Below are positions 26,415 through 48,698 of a DNA stretch of 64,000 nucleotides, one piece after another. The translations under genes were made by a program, and so were the position numbers. How positions within the stretch are numbered: the first letter of the stretch is position 1; the number at the start of each line of letters is the position of its first letter. The stretch comes from a bacterium. Lineage in GTDB: Bacteria; Electryoneota; Electryoneia; Electryoneales; Electryoneaceae. The stretch covers positions 64,001 through 128,000 of the forward strand of contig JAZDLX010000007.1 in assembly GCA_043801585.1 (NCBI GenBank), in the 5' to 3' direction. The notes below the pieces were generated by a model. That model had not been told where the DNA came from, made no database searches, and saw only the letters and a program-made list of their open reading frames with translations.

Positions 26415-26506
26415 GGGAGCGGATGTGATCCTGGTGGACGCCGCGGCCTTCAAAGCCGTTGTGGGACCTGACCGTCCCGGCTCGGTTCGATTCCGAGACG
26501 TTCCCG
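26415..26506 (+). tRNA. selC: tRNA-Sec, anticodon UCA
   Basis: Acceptor GGGAGCG/CGTTCCC with discriminator G. Long D-stem with TGGT loop. Anticodon arm GCGGC-CTTCAAA-GCCGT (TCA at 26450-26452). Long variable arm GGGAC/GTCCC. T-arm CTCGG-TTCGATT-CCGAG. CCA is not encoded. Confidence 0.92.
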
Positions 26507-26563
26507 CTACCCGAGCAGCGCTGAACGGGATGGGCTGCGACAGGGATGACCGGAGACAGGTGG

Positions 26564-27411: not shown

Positions 27412-27440
27412 TTGCCTTTCAAAGGCACCCCAGCTATATT
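27412..27440 (+). promoter_or_regulatory. sigma70-type promoter for yggS-divIVA
   Basis: TTGCCT-17 nt-TATATT. The same pattern recurs in the window. Confidence 0.65.
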
Positions 27441-40402: not shown

Positions 40403-41662
40403 ATGATACGGCCAATTGTCACATCCCTGATGGTGTTGCTGGCGCTGGAAGCTTCCGCCCTGGCGGGATCCCCTGAAGTGAAGTGGGAAAAGAGGGGAAG
40501 CCGATGGGAGGCTGAAGTGACCCACAGCCTGCAAGGCGCTTCATTCAAGAAATTGAATGTCAGCGGGTTTACGGGAAATGTCACGGTCACAGGCAACACC
40601 AAGGATGCGGAATTGGTCATACGCTGTGTGATGGAGCGTGGTCTTTCCCGCGAAGAAGCTGAAGAAGTACTTAAGAAAATCCTTCCCCAGGTCAAGATCA
40701 GCAGCCGTGAGGTAGAGGTTCAAAGCTCCCGACGGTATGTGTGGGGCACTCCGGATGCAAACCTGTCACTGAATGCGAGGATTCCGATTGCTACGGACCT
40801 GTACCTGAAAGTTTCCGCGGGGGACGCGGACGTCAGCAACCTGAAGGGGACGATCAATTGTGTTCTTTCCGGCGGATCGGTCGATCTGTCGAATGTGGAG
40901 GGCAATTTGTCCACCGCTGTTTCCGGTGGCGATCTGACATTCAATGACGTGCGTGGTGAGCTTTCAGCGGCTACGTCCGGTGGGGATATCAAGTTGGAGA
41001 AGTATTCCGGCACGGCGGATGTTACAACGTCCGGTGGCAATATCTCGATTCGGCGTGTCAAGGGTACGCTGACAGCAACAACTTCAGGCGGCGACATTCA
41101 AGCCATCGGCATCAGTGGTGATAAAGTGATCTTGACGAGTTCGGGCGGTGATCTGGATCTCGAGGACATCGCAGTGACCAGGCATGCGGAACTCGAAACC
41201 TCCGGCGGTAGCATTGGCCTCAGGAATTCTTCCGGCACGATGAGAGTGTCGTCGTCGGGTGGAGATGTTGATCTTCAAAAGCACGAGGGTGAAATCGAGA
41301 TCAACGCCAACTCCGGGGATGTTGTGCTGAAGGAAGTACGGGGAAGTGTGACGGCGAATGTGGGAAGCGGAGATATTCAGGTATGGCTGGTTGAAGGGTT
41401 GGGATCTTCCGATCGGGTTGAACTTTGGACCAATGATGGATCTCTGGAATTGCACATTCCGTCCACAATGGGTGCCTACATCGAAGCCTCTGTGGAGATC
41501 TACAGCGACAGCGACAAAAGGGACCGAATCGAATCCGATTTTCCGTTGAAATACAAGCATGCCAAACGGGGTGAACTGCGTGCATCGGGTGAGATCAACG
41601 GCGGTGGTATTCCGATTCTGCTGACCGTCGGCAACGGATACATCCGTATCCGATCACAATGA
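40403..41662 (+). CDS. DUF4097 family beta-strand repeat protein
   Basis: Signal peptide, many TSGGDI-type repeats, INGGG tail. Confidence 0.9.
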   Translation: MIRPIVTSLMVLLALEASALAGSPEVKWEKRGSRWEAEVTHSLQGASFKKLNVSGFTGNVTVTGNTKDAELVIRCVMERGLSREEAEEVLKKILPQVKISSREVEVQSSRRYVWGTPDANLSLNARIPIATDLYLKVSAGDADVSNLKGTINCVLSGGSVDLSNVEGNLSTAVSGGDLTFNDVRGELSAATSGGDIKLEKYSGTADVTTSGGNISIRRVKGTLTATTSGGDIQAIGISGDKVILTSSGGDLDLEDIAVTRHAELETSGGSIGLRNSSGTMRVSSSGGDVDLQKHEGEIEINANSGDVVLKEVRGSVTANVGSGDIQVWLVEGLGSSDRVELWTNDGSLELHIPSTMGAYIEASVEIYSDSDKRDRIESDFPLKYKHAKRGELRASGEINGGGIPILLTVGNGYIRIRSQ

Positions 41663-41685
41663 TTGAGGGCCGAAGGAGGACGAAG

Positions 41686-42552
41686 ATGAAGAGGTTTCGT
41701 GCCGGTGTTCTGCTTGCCGGGATTCTGTTCACGGGTGCTGTGCTGGCCGCAGGGCCTCTTGAATCCTACGAGAAGAGTGCACCTCTCGAAGACACGAAAG
41801 AGTCCGACGTACGGATCAACCTCGGCCTTGCTCGGATCGATCTACTCGCCGGCGACAAAGATGAGTTGATCAGTATTTCCGGAGAGTACAACCCAGTGGA
41901 TTCGGATCCCAGACTCCAGGTTGACAGGAGAGGGGATCGAACCGTGGTGACGTTCAAGAACCAGAATGATCGGAGATCGTACAGACACGGAAACCGTAAT
42001 CGCGATTTCAAAAACGAGGATCGTTATCGGATCAGGCTTAGCACGATTCCACTGACAGATCTTTCGGTTGACGTCGGATTTGGCGAATACGAGTTGAATC
42101 TCGATCGGCTTCGACTGGATAACATTGAGTTGAACTCGGGATTTTCCGAAATGCGTGTAAGCCTGGATTCACCGAACAAGGAGCGCGCCTCCCGAGTGAG
42201 CATCAAGAGCGGCCTCGGCGAGTTGAAAACCGACCATTTTGGATTTCTTTACTTCGACAGGCTGAAAGTTGAAGGAGGTTTGGGAGACCTGAAGCTTGAT
42301 CTTCGAGGCTTTGAAGGGGATGGAGTCGTGGACCTGAACATTGGGCTCGGAAGCTGCCATATCACTGTCCCCGAGGATGTTGATGTCCGAATTTATTATA
42401 GTGGTAATTTTTTATCATCCATTGATTTAAATGGATTTAACAAGGTCTCACGGACGGAATATGAAAGCAAGGGTTTTGGGAATTCGAAGTCGACGCTTGA
42501 AATCGACGCATCCGTGGGTATGGGAAACCTGACGGTTGAGCGCAGGCGATAG
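41686..42552 (+). CDS. Toast-rack / LiaF-DUF2154-like beta-repeat exported protein
   Basis: Signal peptide, repeated GxGxL-x-LDL strands, ITVPEDV. AAGGAGG RBS. Confidence 0.75.
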   Translation: MKRFRAGVLLAGILFTGAVLAAGPLESYEKSAPLEDTKESDVRINLGLARIDLLAGDKDELISISGEYNPVDSDPRLQVDRRGDRTVVTFKNQNDRRSYRHGNRNRDFKNEDRYRIRLSTIPLTDLSVDVGFGEYELNLDRLRLDNIELNSGFSEMRVSLDSPNKERASRVSIKSGLGELKTDHFGFLYFDRLKVEGGLGDLKLDLRGFEGDGVVDLNIGLGSCHITVPEDVDVRIYYSGNFLSSIDLNGFNKVSRTEYESKGFGNSKSTLEIDASVGMGNLTVERRR

Positions 42553-42591
42553 AGCTGGAGTCCCGGAAGAGTTCGATTCGCTTAACAATTC

Positions 42592-42620
42592 TTGCGCAGG
42601 GTGAAGACCCGGGCTATATT
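42592..42620 (+). promoter_or_regulatory. sigma70-type promoter with no downstream protein gene
   Basis: TTGCGC-17 nt-TATATT, same pattern as at 27412 and 35626. Confidence 0.6.
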
Positions 42621-42624
42621 TCCC

Positions 42625-42742
42625 TGTGCCATCAGGTTGTGATGCCCGGGTAATCGGCCCCCCACGGTTGCACGCAGGTATTGCACGCTATGATGGCACA
42701 TCGGACCGCCTGGGGAGCGTTCTTCCTCGGGCGGTTTGGTGT
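42625..42742 (+). ncRNA. Candidate small RNA: long irregular hairpin with C6 loop plus terminator-like hairpin
   Basis: Helices TGTGCCATCA/TGATGGCACA, TGTGATGCC/GGTATTGCA and GTAATCG/CGGTTGC, with loop GCCCCCCA. Second hairpin at 42701-42740. The GU pairs favour the + strand. Confidence 0.6.
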
Positions 42743-42835
42743 CAAGCCTTTTCATCCCCGATGAACCGACCATTCCAGATTCATTCCACTCGCACCGATG
42801 ACGGCTGCTGACAAGTCGGTTCGCTGTCCCGTCAT

Positions 42836-45800
42836 CTACGCTTTCATTTCTTTCTTTCCCGCTATCCTTGTGAAGAAGGCATCGAACAGGGTATAGATCG
42901 CGGGAACGACCAGCAGTGTAAGCAGGGTCGAGGAGGCTAATCCGCCGATGACTACAGCGGAGAGCGGCACCAGTGTTTCGCCACCTGTTCCGAGGCCGAG
43001 AGCGATAAACATCATTCCCGCCATCGTCGTCAGGGTCGTCATCAGAATGGGGCGCAGTCGGCGCTGACCGGCCTGTATGATCGCTTCGAGTCGCGGCATG
43101 TTATCTTCCCGTCGTCCGCGATTGATGAAATCGATCAGGAGGATGCCGTTGTTGACGACGATACCGGAGAGCATGATGATCCCCAGGAAGCTGTTGACAT
43201 TCAATGCACCTTTGAACAGAATCAGGCCGAGGACGGCGCCGATCAACGCGAGCGGGATGGCGGTGCTGATGACAATGGGTTGCCAGAAACTGTTGAACTG
43301 GCTTGCCATCACCACGTAGACGAGAAAGATCGCCAGCACCAGCGCGATCGCGAGAGACTGGAACGATTCGACGATCGATCGCGACGCACCAGCCTGCTTC
43401 CAGCGGTAATCCGCTGGCAACGTGATGTGCTGCTGGACGCGAGCCGCAATCGCCCGCACATCCCGCTGACGGTATCCGGGCGCGGCATCACCGGTGACGG
43501 CAAGGAACCGTTCCTGGTCGCTTCGGCGAATTTCCGATGGACCTGGTTTCATCCTGAAATCCGCAACTGCTCGCAACGGGATGACCGTACCCAACGGCGT
43601 CTGCAGCGAAAGCTCCCGCAGATCGGGGAGACTTCGCACCGCTGAGCGGTCCAGCGAAACCTCGACGTCGTACTGGTTTCCGTCAGCGGTGCTGAATTTC
43701 GTCACGGCAACGCCGTCCACCGCAGTGCGCACCAGCGATGCAACTCTGGCGGTCGAAAATCCCCAGTGCGCCGCTTTCTGCCTGTCAACGACAACCTGCA
43801 CTTCCGGTTTTCCGGCGTCCAGATTGCTTGTCAGGTTGATGATGCTCGGATAAGCCCGAAGGCTGTCCTGAATCTCCTCGCTGATCGTGGCCAGGGTGTC
43901 CAGGTTTGGCCCGACAACGCGGACGTCGATGCCGGAGGATCCCATGCCCGCACCGATGTTCTGCACCTTCACGTCGATCTTCGCATCCGGATAACCCGTC
44001 AGGGCCTGGCGCATCTTTGCCATCACTGCGTCCAGATCACCTTTTGAGGGAGGAACGCGGCAATCAAACCAGGCAATGTTTGAAATCGGCTGGTTGTAGA
44101 ACGCGGACAATCCGACGACGCTGTAGACCTGGTAGATTTCCGGGATCTGCATCAGTTTCTCTTCCATGTCCGAGGCAATGCCCGAGGTCGCATCGAGGGA
44201 GGTGCCGATCGGGAGTTTCAGGTTCACCCGTATTTGCCCCTCGTCGATACGTGGCAGCTCCTCGATGTCAAGCAGGCGAATTCCGGCGATGGGGATGACC
44301 AACAGCGAAAAGGCGGCGATCATCGTCAGCAACGCACGCTTCCAGTTGCTGCTCAGGGCGGTGATTACGGGGCGGTAGATTTTCGCAATCCAGTCGATCA
44401 TTTTCTGCCACTGACGCGGGAGCAGGTGGCTGCCGCCATCCACCTTGAGCACTCTCAGGCTAAGTGTGGGAATCACGGTGAATGAAACGATCAGGCTGAA
44501 GATCAGCGCTGCGACCACAGTCAACGACAGTTCGCCGAGCAGGAAGTAGCTGAGGCCCTTGGTAAATGCCAACGGAAGGAAGACCACCACGCTCGTTGCT
44601 ATGGAAGCGGTGATCGGAAGGGCGACCTCGCTGACGGCGTTGTCGAAAAGATCGGTTTTCGCTTCCAGTGTCATCGAGGAGACGCCGTTCAACCTGCGTT
44701 GTCGGTAGAACAGGTTCTCCAGCACAACAATGCTCGAATCCACGATCATTCCGACACCGAGCGCCAGCCCACCGAGCGAGATGGTGTTCAAACTGATTCC
44801 GAGGGCACCCATGACGAGGAACGTCGCCAGGATGGACACGGGAATCGAGATCACAATGATGAACGTGTTGCGGATACTGCCCAGGAAGAGGTAGATGAAC
44901 AGGGATGCAACGAGTGCTCCGAAGAGAACGTTGGTCGACACGGAACGGATGGTCGAGCGGATGAACGCACTGTCATCCTTGATGACGCGGAACTCGAGAT
45001 CAGGCCAACTCCGCCGGATACCCTCCATCTCCGAATTCACTTCGTCAACCATGGCTACCGTGTTGCCATCGGTCGTCTGACGCACGGACAGGGCGAGTGA
45101 TTCCTGACCGTCGATGTAGGCAATCCCCACCCTGTCATCGTCCGTGAACCGCACTGTGGCGATATCCCCGAGCAGAATCGGGGTCTGCCCACGCAGGTTG
45201 ATGACAACGCTCCGAATATCGTCAAGAGACTGGAATTTGTTGAAGCTTCGGACAATGAACTGCCGACTGCCCTGTGTCAGCTCTCCCGCGGGAATATTGA
45301 GGTTTTCCGACCCAAGCACCTGGGTGAGCTGGTCCAGAGTGATCCCCAGGTTCAGCATTTTCTCGGGATTCGCTTCGACACGGACAACCTTGTCCCCGCC
45401 GCCACGGATATCGATAGCGGCAACGTTCGGGAGGCGCAGCAGCCGGTTGACAATGCGATCCTCCAGGATGCGGCGCAGCTCACCCTCGTCGTACCGTTTG
45501 GAGGTGACTGCGAGTTCCAACGGTGCTGGAATCAGCGCATCCAGTGCAAGGACGGAGGTCGGTTGGATGTCACGGGGCAACTCACCGCGAGCACCGTCCA
45601 GTTTTTCCCGCAGGTCAATCTTGGCGCGGTTGACATCGGTTCCCCAGTCGAAACGGACCGTAAGCTGGCTCATCCCCTCGATGGAGAGTGATTCGACCTC
45701 GTAGATGTTGCTGACCGTCGAGACAACCCGTTCGAGAGGTTTGGTCACCTCTTCCTCGATGTCTTCCGGAGAAACGCCGGGGTAGGGGGTCTGGACGATG

Positions 45801-45934
45801 AGGAATGGAGGAGTGATGTTCGGCCAGTAGGCGATCGGCAGGCCGCGCACCGTGATGATCCCGAGCACCGCCAATGCGGTCGCGAACAGCGCGGTGCCAA
45901 CCGGGTTCTTCATGGACAACCTGGTGATCTTCAT
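42836..45934 (-). CDS. RND efflux permease (AcrB/MdtC/SwrC family)
   Basis: GMIVDSSIVVLEN, GIVVNNGILLID, RLRPILMTTLTT, 12-TM layout. Confidence 0.96.
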   Translation of the reverse strand: MKITRLSMKNPVGTALFATALAVLGIITVRGLPIAYWPNITPPFLIVQTPYPGVSPEDIEEEVTKPLERVVSTVSNIYEVESLSIEGMSQLTVRFDWGTDVNRAKIDLREKLDGARGELPRDIQPTSVLALDALIPAPLELAVTSKRYDEGELRRILEDRIVNRLLRLPNVAAIDIRGGGDKVVRVEANPEKMLNLGITLDQLTQVLGSENLNIPAGELTQGSRQFIVRSFNKFQSLDDIRSVVINLRGQTPILLGDIATVRFTDDDRVGIAYIDGQESLALSVRQTTDGNTVAMVDEVNSEMEGIRRSWPDLEFRVIKDDSAFIRSTIRSVSTNVLFGALVASLFIYLFLGSIRNTFIIVISIPVSILATFLVMGALGISLNTISLGGLALGVGMIVDSSIVVLENLFYRQRRLNGVSSMTLEAKTDLFDNAVSEVALPITASIATSVVVFLPLAFTKGLSYFLLGELSLTVVAALIFSLIVSFTVIPTLSLRVLKVDGGSHLLPRQWQKMIDWIAKIYRPVITALSSNWKRALLTMIAAFSLLVIPIAGIRLLDIEELPRIDEGQIRVNLKLPIGTSLDATSGIASDMEEKLMQIPEIYQVYSVVGLSAFYNQPISNIAWFDCRVPPSKGDLDAVMAKMRQALTGYPDAKIDVKVQNIGAGMGSSGIDVRVVGPNLDTLATISEEIQDSLRAYPSIINLTSNLDAGKPEVQVVVDRQKAAHWGFSTARVASLVRTAVDGVAVTKFSTADGNQYDVEVSLDRSAVRSLPDLRELSLQTPLGTVIPLRAVADFRMKPGPSEIRRSDQERFLAVTGDAAPGYRQRDVRAIAARVQQHITLPADYRWKQAGASRSIVESFQSLAIALVLAIFLVYVVMASQFNSFWQPIVISTAIPLALIGAVLGLILFKGALNVNSFLGIIMLSGIVVNNGILLIDFINRGRREDNMPRLEAIIQAGQRRLRPILMTTLTTMAGMMFIALGLGTGGETLVPLSAVVIGGLASSTLLTLLVVPAIYTLFDAFFTRIAGKKEMKA

Positions 45935-46800
45935 CGACGCAGATCCTCTCGAATGATCACCATCGCCCCATCCTCGAGTGAATTCTGACCGAAGGTGACG
46001 ACCGCGTCTCCACCCTGAAGGTTTGCACCGCGTATCTCAAGACGGTCGCCGAGATCGGCGATTATCGTGACGGGCATCCAGCTGGCCTTTCCGGTCCGAA
46101 CGACAAACAGCCCTTTGATCCGTTTGCGTTCCACCACGGCATCACGGGGGACGGTCATCCCCTGATGCTGGTCGAGCAGCAGCTCCAGTTCACCCACACT
46201 GTTCGGAAGCAGCCTGTGGTCCGGATTGGGCAGTACCACCTCGCCGGGAACAACCTGTCTCTGTTCGTCGACGTAGGGAAGGATTTTTCGCAACCGAACG
46301 TTGTCGAAAAACTGGCCGTTCGTCAGCCTCAGAGTGCCGGTCAATCCGACGCGCAGACTGGGAAGGTCCACTTCGAGGATGTCCGCCCGAAAGACCATCG
46401 AATCGTCATGGACGATTTCGAACAGCTTGGTTTGGGGTGTCACACGTGCGCCCGGCGAGATGTAGCGGTGGGTAATCGTGCCGGAAAGTGGCGAGTCAAC
46501 TCGCTCCGGCTCATAATGGACTCCGGGATCGATACGTTTGACATGAATAAGGATTTGACCGCGACGGACGCGGTCTCCCTCGTCCACGGTGAGGTCAACG
46601 ACATCCCCGCCGAAGGTGCTGAATACGTCAACATGTTCGGGTGCGACAATCCGTCCACGCACCGGGAGTGTCTGGCGCACTGTTTCCAGTTTCACCCTGT
46701 CGATATAAACCGGAATGGCGTCCCTTGGCGCGTCCTTTGCATAAACCATCGGCCAGAGGATGAACGAAACCACAACGGTCAGGAGCATACGTTTATTCAT
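45931..46800 (-). CDS. RND periplasmic adaptor (MFP) apparently lacking the alpha-helical hairpin
   Basis: Lipoyl half-motifs VDEGDRVRRGQIL and SPLSGTI lie only about 17 aa apart. Also NPDHRLLP, VPRDAV, GDAVVTFG. Confidence 0.9.
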   Translation of the reverse strand: MNKRMLLTVVVSFILWPMVYAKDAPRDAIPVYIDRVKLETVRQTLPVRGRIVAPEHVDVFSTFGGDVVDLTVDEGDRVRRGQILIHVKRIDPGVHYEPERVDSPLSGTITHRYISPGARVTPQTKLFEIVHDDSMVFRADILEVDLPSLRVGLTGTLRLTNGQFFDNVRLRKILPYVDEQRQVVPGEVVLPNPDHRLLPNSVGELELLLDQHQGMTVPRDAVVERKRIKGLFVVRTGKASWMPVTIIADLGDRLEIRGANLQGGDAVVTFGQNSLEDGAMVIIREDLRR

Positions 46801-48112
46801 CGAATGCCTCGATGTATGGGAGATATTCCGCGTCGCGCATGGAGCACCATTTAACGACGGCGTCGAACCGGTAGCCCATCAGAGTCAGGCGGGTGCGGCG
46901 CAGTGTCCGTTGCGCCTCGATCAGATCCAAGCTCCCGATGCCACCGTTCTTGTAACGGTTCAGGGCGATCGTGTAGCTTGCGTTCGCCTGTTCAAACGAC
47001 TTCCGGCCGATCTCGATCTGTTGCAGGGCTTCTGCGAGATCGAGCCGGGAATCGAGGATGGATTGTTCGATTTCCGCGTTTTTATCCTGCTCTTTGGCTT
47101 GCAGGGACCTGCGGGAAATCGTGATCTCCTCCAGCTTCCGTTTTGTCAGCCATCCGTCGAAAAGAGGAATCGAGAGGGAGACGCCCAGTGACCAGGAATC
47201 CTGAAACGCCTCGACATCCGGAAACTGTCCGTTACGAATCACCCAGGAAAAAAACGCGGAGGGCATCGGACGGAGCCAACCCGTTTTCGTGATCTTCTCC
47301 TGTTCGGTGTAAAGGTCAAAGGAACGGCGGAGCATCTTCAGCTCGAGATGCTGAAGAACCGCCGTGGACACTTCCGTTGTGTCCAAATCGCCTGGAGGAG
47401 ATTCCGGAAGCGAGATGTCTGAATCGACGGGTGCGGTGAGCGGACGCCCAAGCAAACGGTTCAAAGCGACTTCCAGACGGTTCACCTGCTTGCGGCGGTT
47501 CACGATCTCGCTTTGAGCACCAGACAACTCGACTTCCATCCGCAGCACGTCGAAGTCGCTCGCGAAACCGCCTTTGTACTGGGCCTTGACCAAAGCGACC
47601 TGGTTATCGAGCAGGGATGCATTCTCTTCGGCCCAGCGAAGCGCTTCTTTGGCGAGGGAGATGCCGAAATAGGATCTCGCAACCGCAAGAGTGACCGCTC
47701 GGCGAGCCTGCTCTTCCGCGTCCCGCGCGGTTTGGGCGTTCAACTCCGCGATGTGGACGGACGCTTGAGTGCGGCCCCAGGTGAAAAAGGGGTAATTGGC
47801 GCTGAGCTGGGTGTTGATCTGGTTATCGGTGCCGAATTTCAGCATTCTGCCGGATCCCAGATTCGCTTCCGGGATGTAGGAGGGTCTTGTGTACGATGCC
47901 GAAAGAGCGGCAGTCGGCAACAACCCTGAACGCGCCTGCTCAATCTGGATCTCGGCTTGGGAAACCGACTCTCGTGCAGCAAGAAGCGAAGGATTGGAGG
48001 ACAACGCCTCCTCGACGAGCGAGGAAAGCGGTTCTCCCGCCCGGGCCATTATCGGGAGGACGATGGCGACCAGGAGAATAGCGGCCGTTCGCCATCGGAA
48101 TGTCTGTTTCAT
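46793..48112 (-). CDS. TolC family outer membrane efflux protein
   Basis: ALSSNPSL, LLPT, LSIPLFDG, RYKNG..SLDLIEAQ. Confidence 0.94.
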   Translation of the reverse strand: MKQTFRWRTAAILLVAIVLPIMARAGEPLSSLVEEALSSNPSLLAARESVSQAEIQIEQARSGLLPTAALSASYTRPSYIPEANLGSGRMLKFGTDNQINTQLSANYPFFTWGRTQASVHIAELNAQTARDAEEQARRAVTLAVARSYFGISLAKEALRWAEENASLLDNQVALVKAQYKGGFASDFDVLRMEVELSGAQSEIVNRRKQVNRLEVALNRLLGRPLTAPVDSDISLPESPPGDLDTTEVSTAVLQHLELKMLRRSFDLYTEQEKITKTGWLRPMPSAFFSWVIRNGQFPDVEAFQDSWSLGVSLSIPLFDGWLTKRKLEEITISRRSLQAKEQDKNAEIEQSILDSRLDLAEALQQIEIGRKSFEQANASYTIALNRYKNGGIGSLDLIEAQRTLRRTRLTLMGYRFDAVVKWCSMRDAEYLPYIEAFDE

Positions 48113-48624
48113 GACGCTTCTCCCTGTCCGAGATCCTGGATCAATTGACCCATCATGAAGAGTGCACGGAGGAGAAGATCCCGCTGCTTTTGCGAAAGGT
48201 TCCTGAGAAGCCCCTGCATCGTTTCCCGAACGATCTCACGCCGTTGGGTCTGGTAGCTTCGACCGCGAGTTCCAAAGTCGAGCAACACCTCGCGGCGGTT
48301 CTTCGGATTCTCTATACGGGTCAGGTAGCCCTCGCGCACCATTCGATCCACAAGCACAGATGTGGTGGATCGGGCGAGACCATGTTTATCCGCAAGCGCA
48401 CGGAGGGTGATCTGGGGTGTTGACGAAAGTGTGTCGAGCACCTCGAGTTGCCGCAACGTGAGGTTGCCCAGTTCCGAACGGGCAGGAGCTAAATCGTGAA
48501 AAAACTTCCCAATAGCGAGAATTGCATCAGCGAGATGTTCGGAACTGAATTCGCCCTCGTGAAAGGACATCCCCTCTGCGGGAATTGACATCGGCTGTGG
48601 ATGAAGAGGATCTGTTGTGTCCAT
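48109..48624 (-). CDS. MarR family transcriptional regulator
   Basis: LTLRQLEVL, STTSVLVDRMVREGYL.R...NRR...TRG. Confidence 0.92.
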   Translation of the reverse strand: MDTTDPLHPQPMSIPAEGMSFHEGEFSSEHLADAILAIGKFFHDLAPARSELGNLTLRQLEVLDTLSSTPQITLRALADKHGLARSTTSVLVDRMVREGYLTRIENPKNRREVLLDFGTRGRSYQTQRREIVRETMQGLLRNLSQKQRDLLLRALFMMGQLIQDLGQGEAS

Positions 48625-48646
48625 CGCATCTCCAAACTGTTTCAAA

Positions 48647-48698
48647 ATACGAATAGTTCGTATAAACGAATATAGCATTCAGGGTGAAGGAGATGCAA
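48647..48698 (-). promoter_or_regulatory. marR promoter with overlapping palindromic operator(s)
   Basis: Minus-strand TTGCAT-18 nt-TATATT (48698-48669). Palindromes ATACGAA-TAG-TTCGTAT (48647-48663) and TTCG-N6-CGAA (48657-48670). Confidence 0.7.

Follow-up and report, generated by a model that had tools for sequence, protein, structure and literature searches.

What would be expressed from the promoter that points into the gap between a toast-rack/LiaF-C domain gene (41659-42552, + strand; assigned by Pfam and context) and a convergent AcrB-type RND gene (42836-45934, - strand), the last of a marR-OEP-MFP-RND cassette (42836-48678; both Pfam assignments)? All coordinates refer to the window, which is the whole stretch of 64,000 nucleotides of contig JAZDLX010000007.1 that was analysed; G000 denotes this genome, f1 its family, and other G and f labels denote relatives and families. 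The organism belongs to Candidatus Electryoneota, described in the cited part of PMC9324843 as facultative anaerobes of the FCB group. The analysis presented below indicates that the gap very likely contains a real RNA gene, and that this gene represents an uncatalogued, well-covarying RNA family, as consistent as tmRNA in several families of the uncultured phylum.

The promoter reported in an earlier note on this DNA is present on the + strand, with the -35 hexamer TTGCGC at 42592-42597 and the -10 hexamer TATATT at 42615-42620, 17 nt further on, which places the putative start site at 42626-42628. The same note saw this promoter form in front of other genes of the window, and this holds for the sites at 27412 and 35626 (purF), while the marR promoter has an 18-nt spacer. 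TTG-N3-N17-TATATT occurs at 39 sites in G000 versus 3-14 sites at spacers of 13-16 and 18-21, and the form is therefore the organism's own consensus; the sRNA promoter was not among the matches of a generic consensus promoter scan of the window. The gap was said to lack a + strand protein gene, and it does contain a 61-codon + strand ORF (42626-42811) overlapping the RNA, without a Pfam match. A small protein was rejected as the product, as both the 61- and a 63-codon ORF lack Pfam matches, the indels among homologues are not multiples of three and no start codon is common to the alignment. A repeat or mobile element was likewise rejected, the element being single-copy in the G000 genome with one strong match per genome in the relatives. 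An ordinary tRNA-Sec gene lies elsewhere in the window, at 26415-26507.

The predicted fold agrees with the two hairpins described before. Hairpin 1 (42625-42700) folds at -37.8 kcal/mol, with z -3.45 on the + strand and z -1.59 on the - strand; for hairpin 2 (42701-42739, + strand) the values are -27.3 kcal/mol, z -5.05 and z -2.29. G-U pairing, regarded earlier as a sign of a selected RNA structure, accounts for 13 of the 48 pairs of the folded RNA. The sRNA core within hairpin 1 (42626-42699, + strand), delimited by fold, covariance models and covariation, comprises an outer helix P1 (about 42626-42635 with 42690-42699), a variable middle helix between P1 and P3, and the apical helix P3 (42650-42656 with 42665-42671), the helices being defined by fold and models. 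P3 carries an 8-nt loop, GCCCCCCA (42657-42664), the proposed seed, which is 93-100% unpaired in the predicted fold.

The expectation that related genomes would carry homologues was borne out. The first of them were detected by searching 60 relatives at the DNA level and the phylum with a pattern, and three covariance-model rounds then raised their number, giving one full-length copy in 54 of 79 phylum genomes at E<=2e-6, with a gap between the last member (E 1.7e-6) and the next match (E 0.002). The RNA is present in all genomes of f1 (16/16), f8 (6/6) and f9 (1/1), in 22 of 24 genomes of f6 (plus one copy cut by a contig end), in 7/9 of f5 and 1/2 of f4, and was found rarely or not at all in f3 (1/16), f2 (0/4) and f7 (0/1). 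These genomes are incomplete, and the recovery baseline given by tmRNA is 13/15 for the f1 relatives and 17/24 for the f6 genomes. Weak matches without the loop were left out (a second site in G005, and G047, G048, G023, G045 and G021). G028 (L405) contains a similar C-rich loop on a P1-like stem without a U-run, below significance and not counted; the metagenome loci L211 and L224, which combine a C-rich loop with a P1-like stem and are also below significance, may be divergent members.

Beyond the phylum genomes, an exact 21-nt pattern gave seven matches in genome contigs, all matching phylum genomes already found. A looser pattern, which recovers 25 of 52 known members, gave 39 matches in metagenome contigs that carry no taxon label; 23 of them score at least 28 bits, and all of these resemble variants of the phylum. 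A phage or plasmid origin was rejected, since the 3, 24, 37 and 0 pattern matches in viral contigs include none above 22 bits with model R1; blastn against phages and plasmids gave no match to the sRNA. Two viral contigs (L126:1499-1565 and L139) encode a hairpin that is shorter, contains GCCCCCCAC within a large loop and is accompanied by a U-run; this is possibly a chance similarity at 15 bits in pattern-selected sequences.

Every member of the family is a rod in which a variable middle, about 20 nt long on either side, separates P1 from an apical helix and the loop, and all families keep the distance from P1 to the loop close to 20 nt (16-27). P1 pairs CCAYCRG with CYGRUGG. The proposed secondary structure is well supported by covariation: among 36 diverse sequences, two-sided changes are seen at 13 of 17 pairs, a result equalled in 0 of 500 shuffles, and 92% of cells pair, compared with 27-55% in slid registers. 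The 43 sequences aligned to the covariance model, an alignment that leans to it, show two-sided changes at 11 of 15 pairs (0/500 shuffles). In both sets 92-97% of cells pair versus 20-58% in slid controls, as many as six pair types occur at individual pairs, and the shuffle controls ignore the relatedness of the sequences. The loop closing pair is G-C in 36/36 sequences, and the loop follows the consensus G[NYCCCYCM]C with a length of 8 nt, or 7 or 9 nt in two cases. Over 54 genomes the loop reads GCCCCCCA in 39, UCCCCUCC in seven and AUCCCCCA in four, the remainder being four C-rich single variants. Positions 2 and 6 vary only from C to U, so pairing to G is kept, and the f5 loop, UCCCCUCC, is an anti-Shine-Dalgarno sequence. 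A sigma70-type promoter (TTG-N-TAnWnT match) precedes most homologues, and a U-rich tail (at least five T in the last 10 nt) follows P1 in 51/54, with G000, G001 and G008 as exceptions. This comparison shows that the outer helix P1 would double as the terminator stem.

The exceptions bear on the role assigned earlier to hairpin 2. The conserved unit is about 75 nt long and consists of hairpin 1 only, not of an RNA of about 115 nt, and the sequence noted earlier at the end of hairpin 2 (TTTGGTGT) offers no free U-run, its TTT being paired inside the hairpin. Hairpin 2 was found only in G000 and G001 among the 54 members, where it occupies the position of the U-run of other members; it probably represents the 3' end or a terminator substitute in this genus. 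An attenuator had also been suggested: by pairing with hairpin 2, the loop would control whether antisense read-through enters the RND operon. The loop is indeed complementary at 7 of 8 positions to 42711-42718 in the hairpin 2 arm and this match is kept in G001, whereas by chance a 7-of-8 complement is expected in about 1.6% of 60-nt genome windows (1703/108944); a transient pseudoknot would lie outside the scope of the folding tool. Nevertheless, the forced loop-arm fold is 28 kcal/mol worse for the full RNA and about 15 kcal/mol worse for the nascent RNA, and a short-lived pseudoknot cannot explain loop conservation in the 52 genomes without the partner. Moreover, G003 has a convergent RND gene with a plain U-run and no hairpin 2, and the RND cassette looks inserted, because in G009, G002 and G011 the sRNA and a SLOG gene are direct neighbours. 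The attenuator is thus a very improbable explanation.

The RND gene is not a conserved neighbour of the sRNA, apart from its presence in G003, and the downstream genes vary in kind (SLOG, RND, glycosyltransferase, radical SAM) as well as in orientation. The toast-rack gene lies upstream in f1 and in G062 (confirmed by Pfam in nine genomes). In 29 of 46 genomes checked (22 of f6, six of f8, one of f3) a tRNA-Leu(CAA) gene starts within about 20 nt of the RNA end; in G062 it is located about 195 nt from the sRNA. These linkages raise the question of a cis-acting element, a terminator or leader hairpin which sets the read-through into tRNA-Leu(CAA) or ends the toast-rack gene. The shape of P1 followed by a U-run is that of a terminator, tRNA-Leu follows the RNA in f3, f6 and f8, and the upstream gene is co-oriented in f1. 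We nonetheless consider this improbable, as promoter and loop are kept where no such tRNA is present (f1 0/16, f4 0/1, f5 0/5 tested), where the upstream gene is divergent and where the downstream genes differ in kind and orientation. Retention of the promoter and the loop while the neighbours change is best read as the mark of a trans-acting RNA.

Is this RNA already known? The Rfam scan gave no match at E<=5-10 over the RNA's stretch of the window and over 29 homologue loci, and over the whole window none at gathering score that is relevant to the sRNA. The earlier failure to recognise 6S, SRP RNA or RNase P in this sequence is in line with the finding of G000's own copies on other contigs. 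No tmRNA turned up in G000, which does encode smpB, and an assembly gap is the probable reason; a tmRNA or split-tmRNA piece was rejected, since 13/15 f1 relatives carrying the sRNA family encode an ordinary separate tmRNA. A Y RNA was also rejected, as Ro60 (TROVE) was found in 0/79 genomes and in 2/14 reference genomes used as a control. Among the literature titles listed, none names such an RNA; motif catalogues in supplements could contain one.

The RNA has the hallmarks of a trans-acting sRNA, i.e., its own promoter, its own terminator and a conserved structure. Together with the covariation and the loop changes restricted to C-to-U, they support the first of the earlier proposals, a trans-acting sRNA with an anti-Shine-Dalgarno-like C-rich seed. 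In the mechanism that we propose, a sigma70-type promoter would drive a stand-alone, single-copy, ancient gene for a rod-shaped hairpin of about 75 nt. The rod exposes one 8-nt C-rich loop, which most probably pairs without Hfq to G-rich ribosome-binding sites of several mRNAs and blocks their translation. Base pairing is on balance the likely function of the sRNA, as judged by analogy. Pairing to ribosome-binding sites is inferred from the C/U-only loop variation, the anti-Shine-Dalgarno loop in f5 and the enrichment of G5 runs at gene starts. In G000, whose 16S tail reads CACCUCCUUU, GGGGG begins at -20 to -11 in 106 called genes versus 15-20 per bin further upstream, an approximately fivefold enrichment at start regions. 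Hfq, on which enterobacterial FnrS depends, was not found in the 79 genomes.

No conserved mRNA target was found by the duplex search in G000, the seed search in three relatives or the enrichment tests, which used rough gene calls (2474 genes) and a strict seed and would miss looser or many-target pairing. The best G000 duplex, with a 459-aa gene, involves a G6 run that is lost in 9/10 orthologues, an altered one being kept in G001. The 79 spacing-filtered TGGGGGG-ATG sites of G003, G007 and G009, retained from the 146 matches listed for the three genomes (82 matches of the search as a whole were unlisted), contain no common orthologue pair among the matches listed. G5 start regions occur in 6/59 genes with Fe-S/heme motifs, against 151/2415 (p 0.27), and in 2/38 operator-bearing genes (p 1.0).

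That no conserved target was found would also suit a different kind of RNA. The sRNA could be an abundant RNA of the housekeeping type, whose loop binds a protein (e.g., one with a poly-pyrimidine-binding domain of the KH, S1 or cold-shock type) or serves as a decoy, the rod being a fixed-length ruler. Such a role would suit a single-copy gene whose recovery in f1 and f6 matches that of tmRNA, the conservation of the P1 sequence beyond pairing needs, the P1-to-loop distance and the tRNA-Leu(CAA) linkage of 29/46 genomes, in which some RNAs have weak U-runs and may be co-transcribed with the tRNA. Yet the RNA was not found in 15/16 f3 and 4/4 f2 genomes, the family-specific transcription-factor boxes in f1 and f5 (see below) suggest conditional expression, the f5 loop is shifted towards a textbook anti-Shine-Dalgarno sequence and Ro60 was not found in the 79 genomes. 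Given the rod length, the P1 conservation and the tRNA-Leu link, we treat a protein-binding or decoy role as a serious rival, if a rather doubtful one, of base pairing.

Base pairing by a C-rich loop has several precedents. In the cited part of PMC6486639, 6C of Actinobacteria exposes six C in a hairpin loop and pairs with G-rich ribosome-binding sites without chaperones. The RNA described here shares with 6C, as presented there, six C in a single-stranded loop (GCCCCCCA, 39/54) and taxon-wide conservation; however, each of two separate stems bears a C-rich loop in 6C, whereas the present RNA has one such loop, on a long rod with the terminator as its base; it also has no Rfam match and comes from a different phylum. 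RoxS/RsaE of Bacillota uses C-rich regions to pair with G-rich targets, and its promoter is under the control of the redox regulators Rex and ResD (PMC5419742, as far as the cited section goes). IsrR, FsrA and MrsI are iron-sparing sRNAs with a C-rich seed and a promoter box for a metal regulator, and for MrsI control by the DtxR-family protein IdeR is predicted (PMC9410917, cited section). Unlike RoxS/RsaE, IsrR and FsrA, the Electryoneota RNA shows no Rfam homology and has one C-rich region rather than the several described in those sections. Cuckoo/CcsR RNAs of Alphaproteobacteria consist of two to four short hairpins, often in several copies, and bind Hfq, according to the cited part of PMC4615179. 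The f5 loop UCCCCUCC resembles their CCUCCUCCC anti-Shine-Dalgarno loop as given there, in contrast to the overall architecture, with one long hairpin in one copy instead of two to four CCUCCUCCC hairpins, and no Hfq found. The sRNA thus stands outside 6C, cuckoo, RoxS, IsrR, Y RNA and the housekeeping RNAs and, by analogy, probably works like the C-rich-loop sRNAs; we judge it fairly probable that it is an Hfq-independent base-pairing sRNA acting like 6C, RoxS or IsrR. This suggests that the FCB group evolved anew the chaperone-free targeting of ribosome-binding sites by C-rich loops that is known in Actinobacteria and Bacillota.

When would such an RNA be made? Upstream of its -35 hexamer, a candidate palindromic operator occupies 42569-42588 (core GTTCG-N6-TTAAC, 42571-42586), with its centre about 48 nt before the putative start and a score of 16.3 bits with a matrix trained without G000. 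The palindrome GTTHG-N6-YTAAC was found in all 15 f1 promoters with upstream sequence, at 15.5-24.8 bits (13 of the 15 were training sites; G000 and G011 were not), whereas 45 other promoters reach at most 9.2 bits. None of the 29 tRNA-linked members has this operator, the best score there being <8 bits. It lies just upstream of the -35 hexamer in 13 promoters, overlaps the -10 hexamer in G011, and in G004 precedes a partial duplicate of the sRNA. This duplicate (L109:2950-3168) is a tandem copy of the sRNA 5' half with the loop TCCCCCCCTCC, directly upstream of the full copy. The conserved palindrome upstream of -35 is new and provides a candidate oxygen/metal regulon, together with its operator, for f1.

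Genome-wide, 25 sites in G000 exceed 14 bits and 24 of them are intergenic, against a background of 21%; at the same cut-off, 30 permuted matrices gave a mean of 5.2 and a maximum of 13 sites, and a spacer of 6 performed best. At 12 bits, 37 intergenic sites were observed and one permuted matrix reached 38. Genes adjacent to the operators encode Fe/Mn SOD, Cu/Zn SOD, OsmC, glutathione peroxidase, a heme-degrading monooxygenase and a CADD protein, and further ones a cytochrome c/caa3 operon, multiheme cytochromes, PFOR and NrdJ; about half of the adjacent genes are not redox genes (e.g., those for an esterase, an HD-GYP protein and HU). The consensus of the matrix contains TTAGG-N4-CCTAA, proposed in the cited part of PMC8464063 as a single-dimer DtxR/IdeR site; the sRNA operator differs from it by three mismatches and the 25 top sites by 0-5 letters, mostly by two. 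Three proteins of the DtxR/MntR family are encoded in G000, and the two that were checked score below curated cut-offs. No strong operator was found at feoB or mntH (best 3.3 and 2.4 bits), unlike for a classical metal-uptake repressor. One 331-aa DtxR-family protein with a long C-terminal extension (contig C51:5137-6132) directly precedes a feoB-like gene, identified by eye from its translation. A palindrome close to GTTAG-N6-CTAAC thus marks a candidate DtxR/MntR-family regulon in G000, and the operator is probably bound by a protein of this family. The f1 sRNA promoter carries the operator common to oxidative-defence and iron/heme enzyme genes, and if a DtxR/MntR-family protein binds there, the sRNA would extend a metal or oxygen response to the post-transcriptional level.

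A survey of the promoters that score above a coding-window null, with noisy promoter calls, places the operator on the promoter or the start of the caa3, monooxygenase, OsmC, esterase, HU and HD-GYP genes. For the multiheme cluster, PFOR and the sRNA, its position is about -40 to -57. By analogy, these positions would agree with repression at oxygen genes and with activation at anaerobic genes and at the sRNA, while the placement in G011 points to repression instead. The arrangement recalls the iron-sparing sRNAs, as outlined in the cited part of PMC9410917, in combining a C-rich seed with a conserved DtxR-like promoter box in genomes with DtxR-family genes; it differs from that outline in the operator, which is mostly upstream of -35, in the one loop and in the lack of enrichment of iron-enzyme mRNAs (p 0.27). 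A possible logic is that of FnrS of enterobacteria, with a regulator placed at oxygen-defence promoters and upstream of -35 at the sRNA (cited part of PMC13501541), but FnrS is described there as driven by FNR, whereas activation here would follow from operator position alone.

In f5 the sRNA promoters carry a different box. TGTGA-N6-WCACA, which we take to match the CRP box, is present in 5/5 genomes and in 4/4 similar metagenome contigs, and beyond this first set in one more clear case, with one half-site. A CRP-family protein with an SRETISR helix was found in 5/5 f5 genomes tested, and a DtxR-family gene in one of nine, the other eight being without a match. A broader and more tentative idea, which we regard as possible rather than likely, is that of a near phylum-wide anti-Shine-Dalgarno RNA wired to different global regulators by family, i.e., to a DtxR/MntR-type metal or oxygen regulon in f1, to a CRP-type box in another family, and to the tRNA-Leu transcript in three more. 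Such an RNA would be a broad translation damper or a decoy of the 16S tail rather than an sRNA with few targets; activated by a DtxR-family protein, it could serve as an oxygen-switch sRNA.

Two loci behind operators in G000 deserve mention for their reading frames. The cytochrome c and caa3-type oxidase genes downstream of two operators (L270:12-1253, contig C36) appear broken into several frames, through an assembly error or decay. The CADD-family gene (L245:1612-2296, contig C179) is split over two frames.
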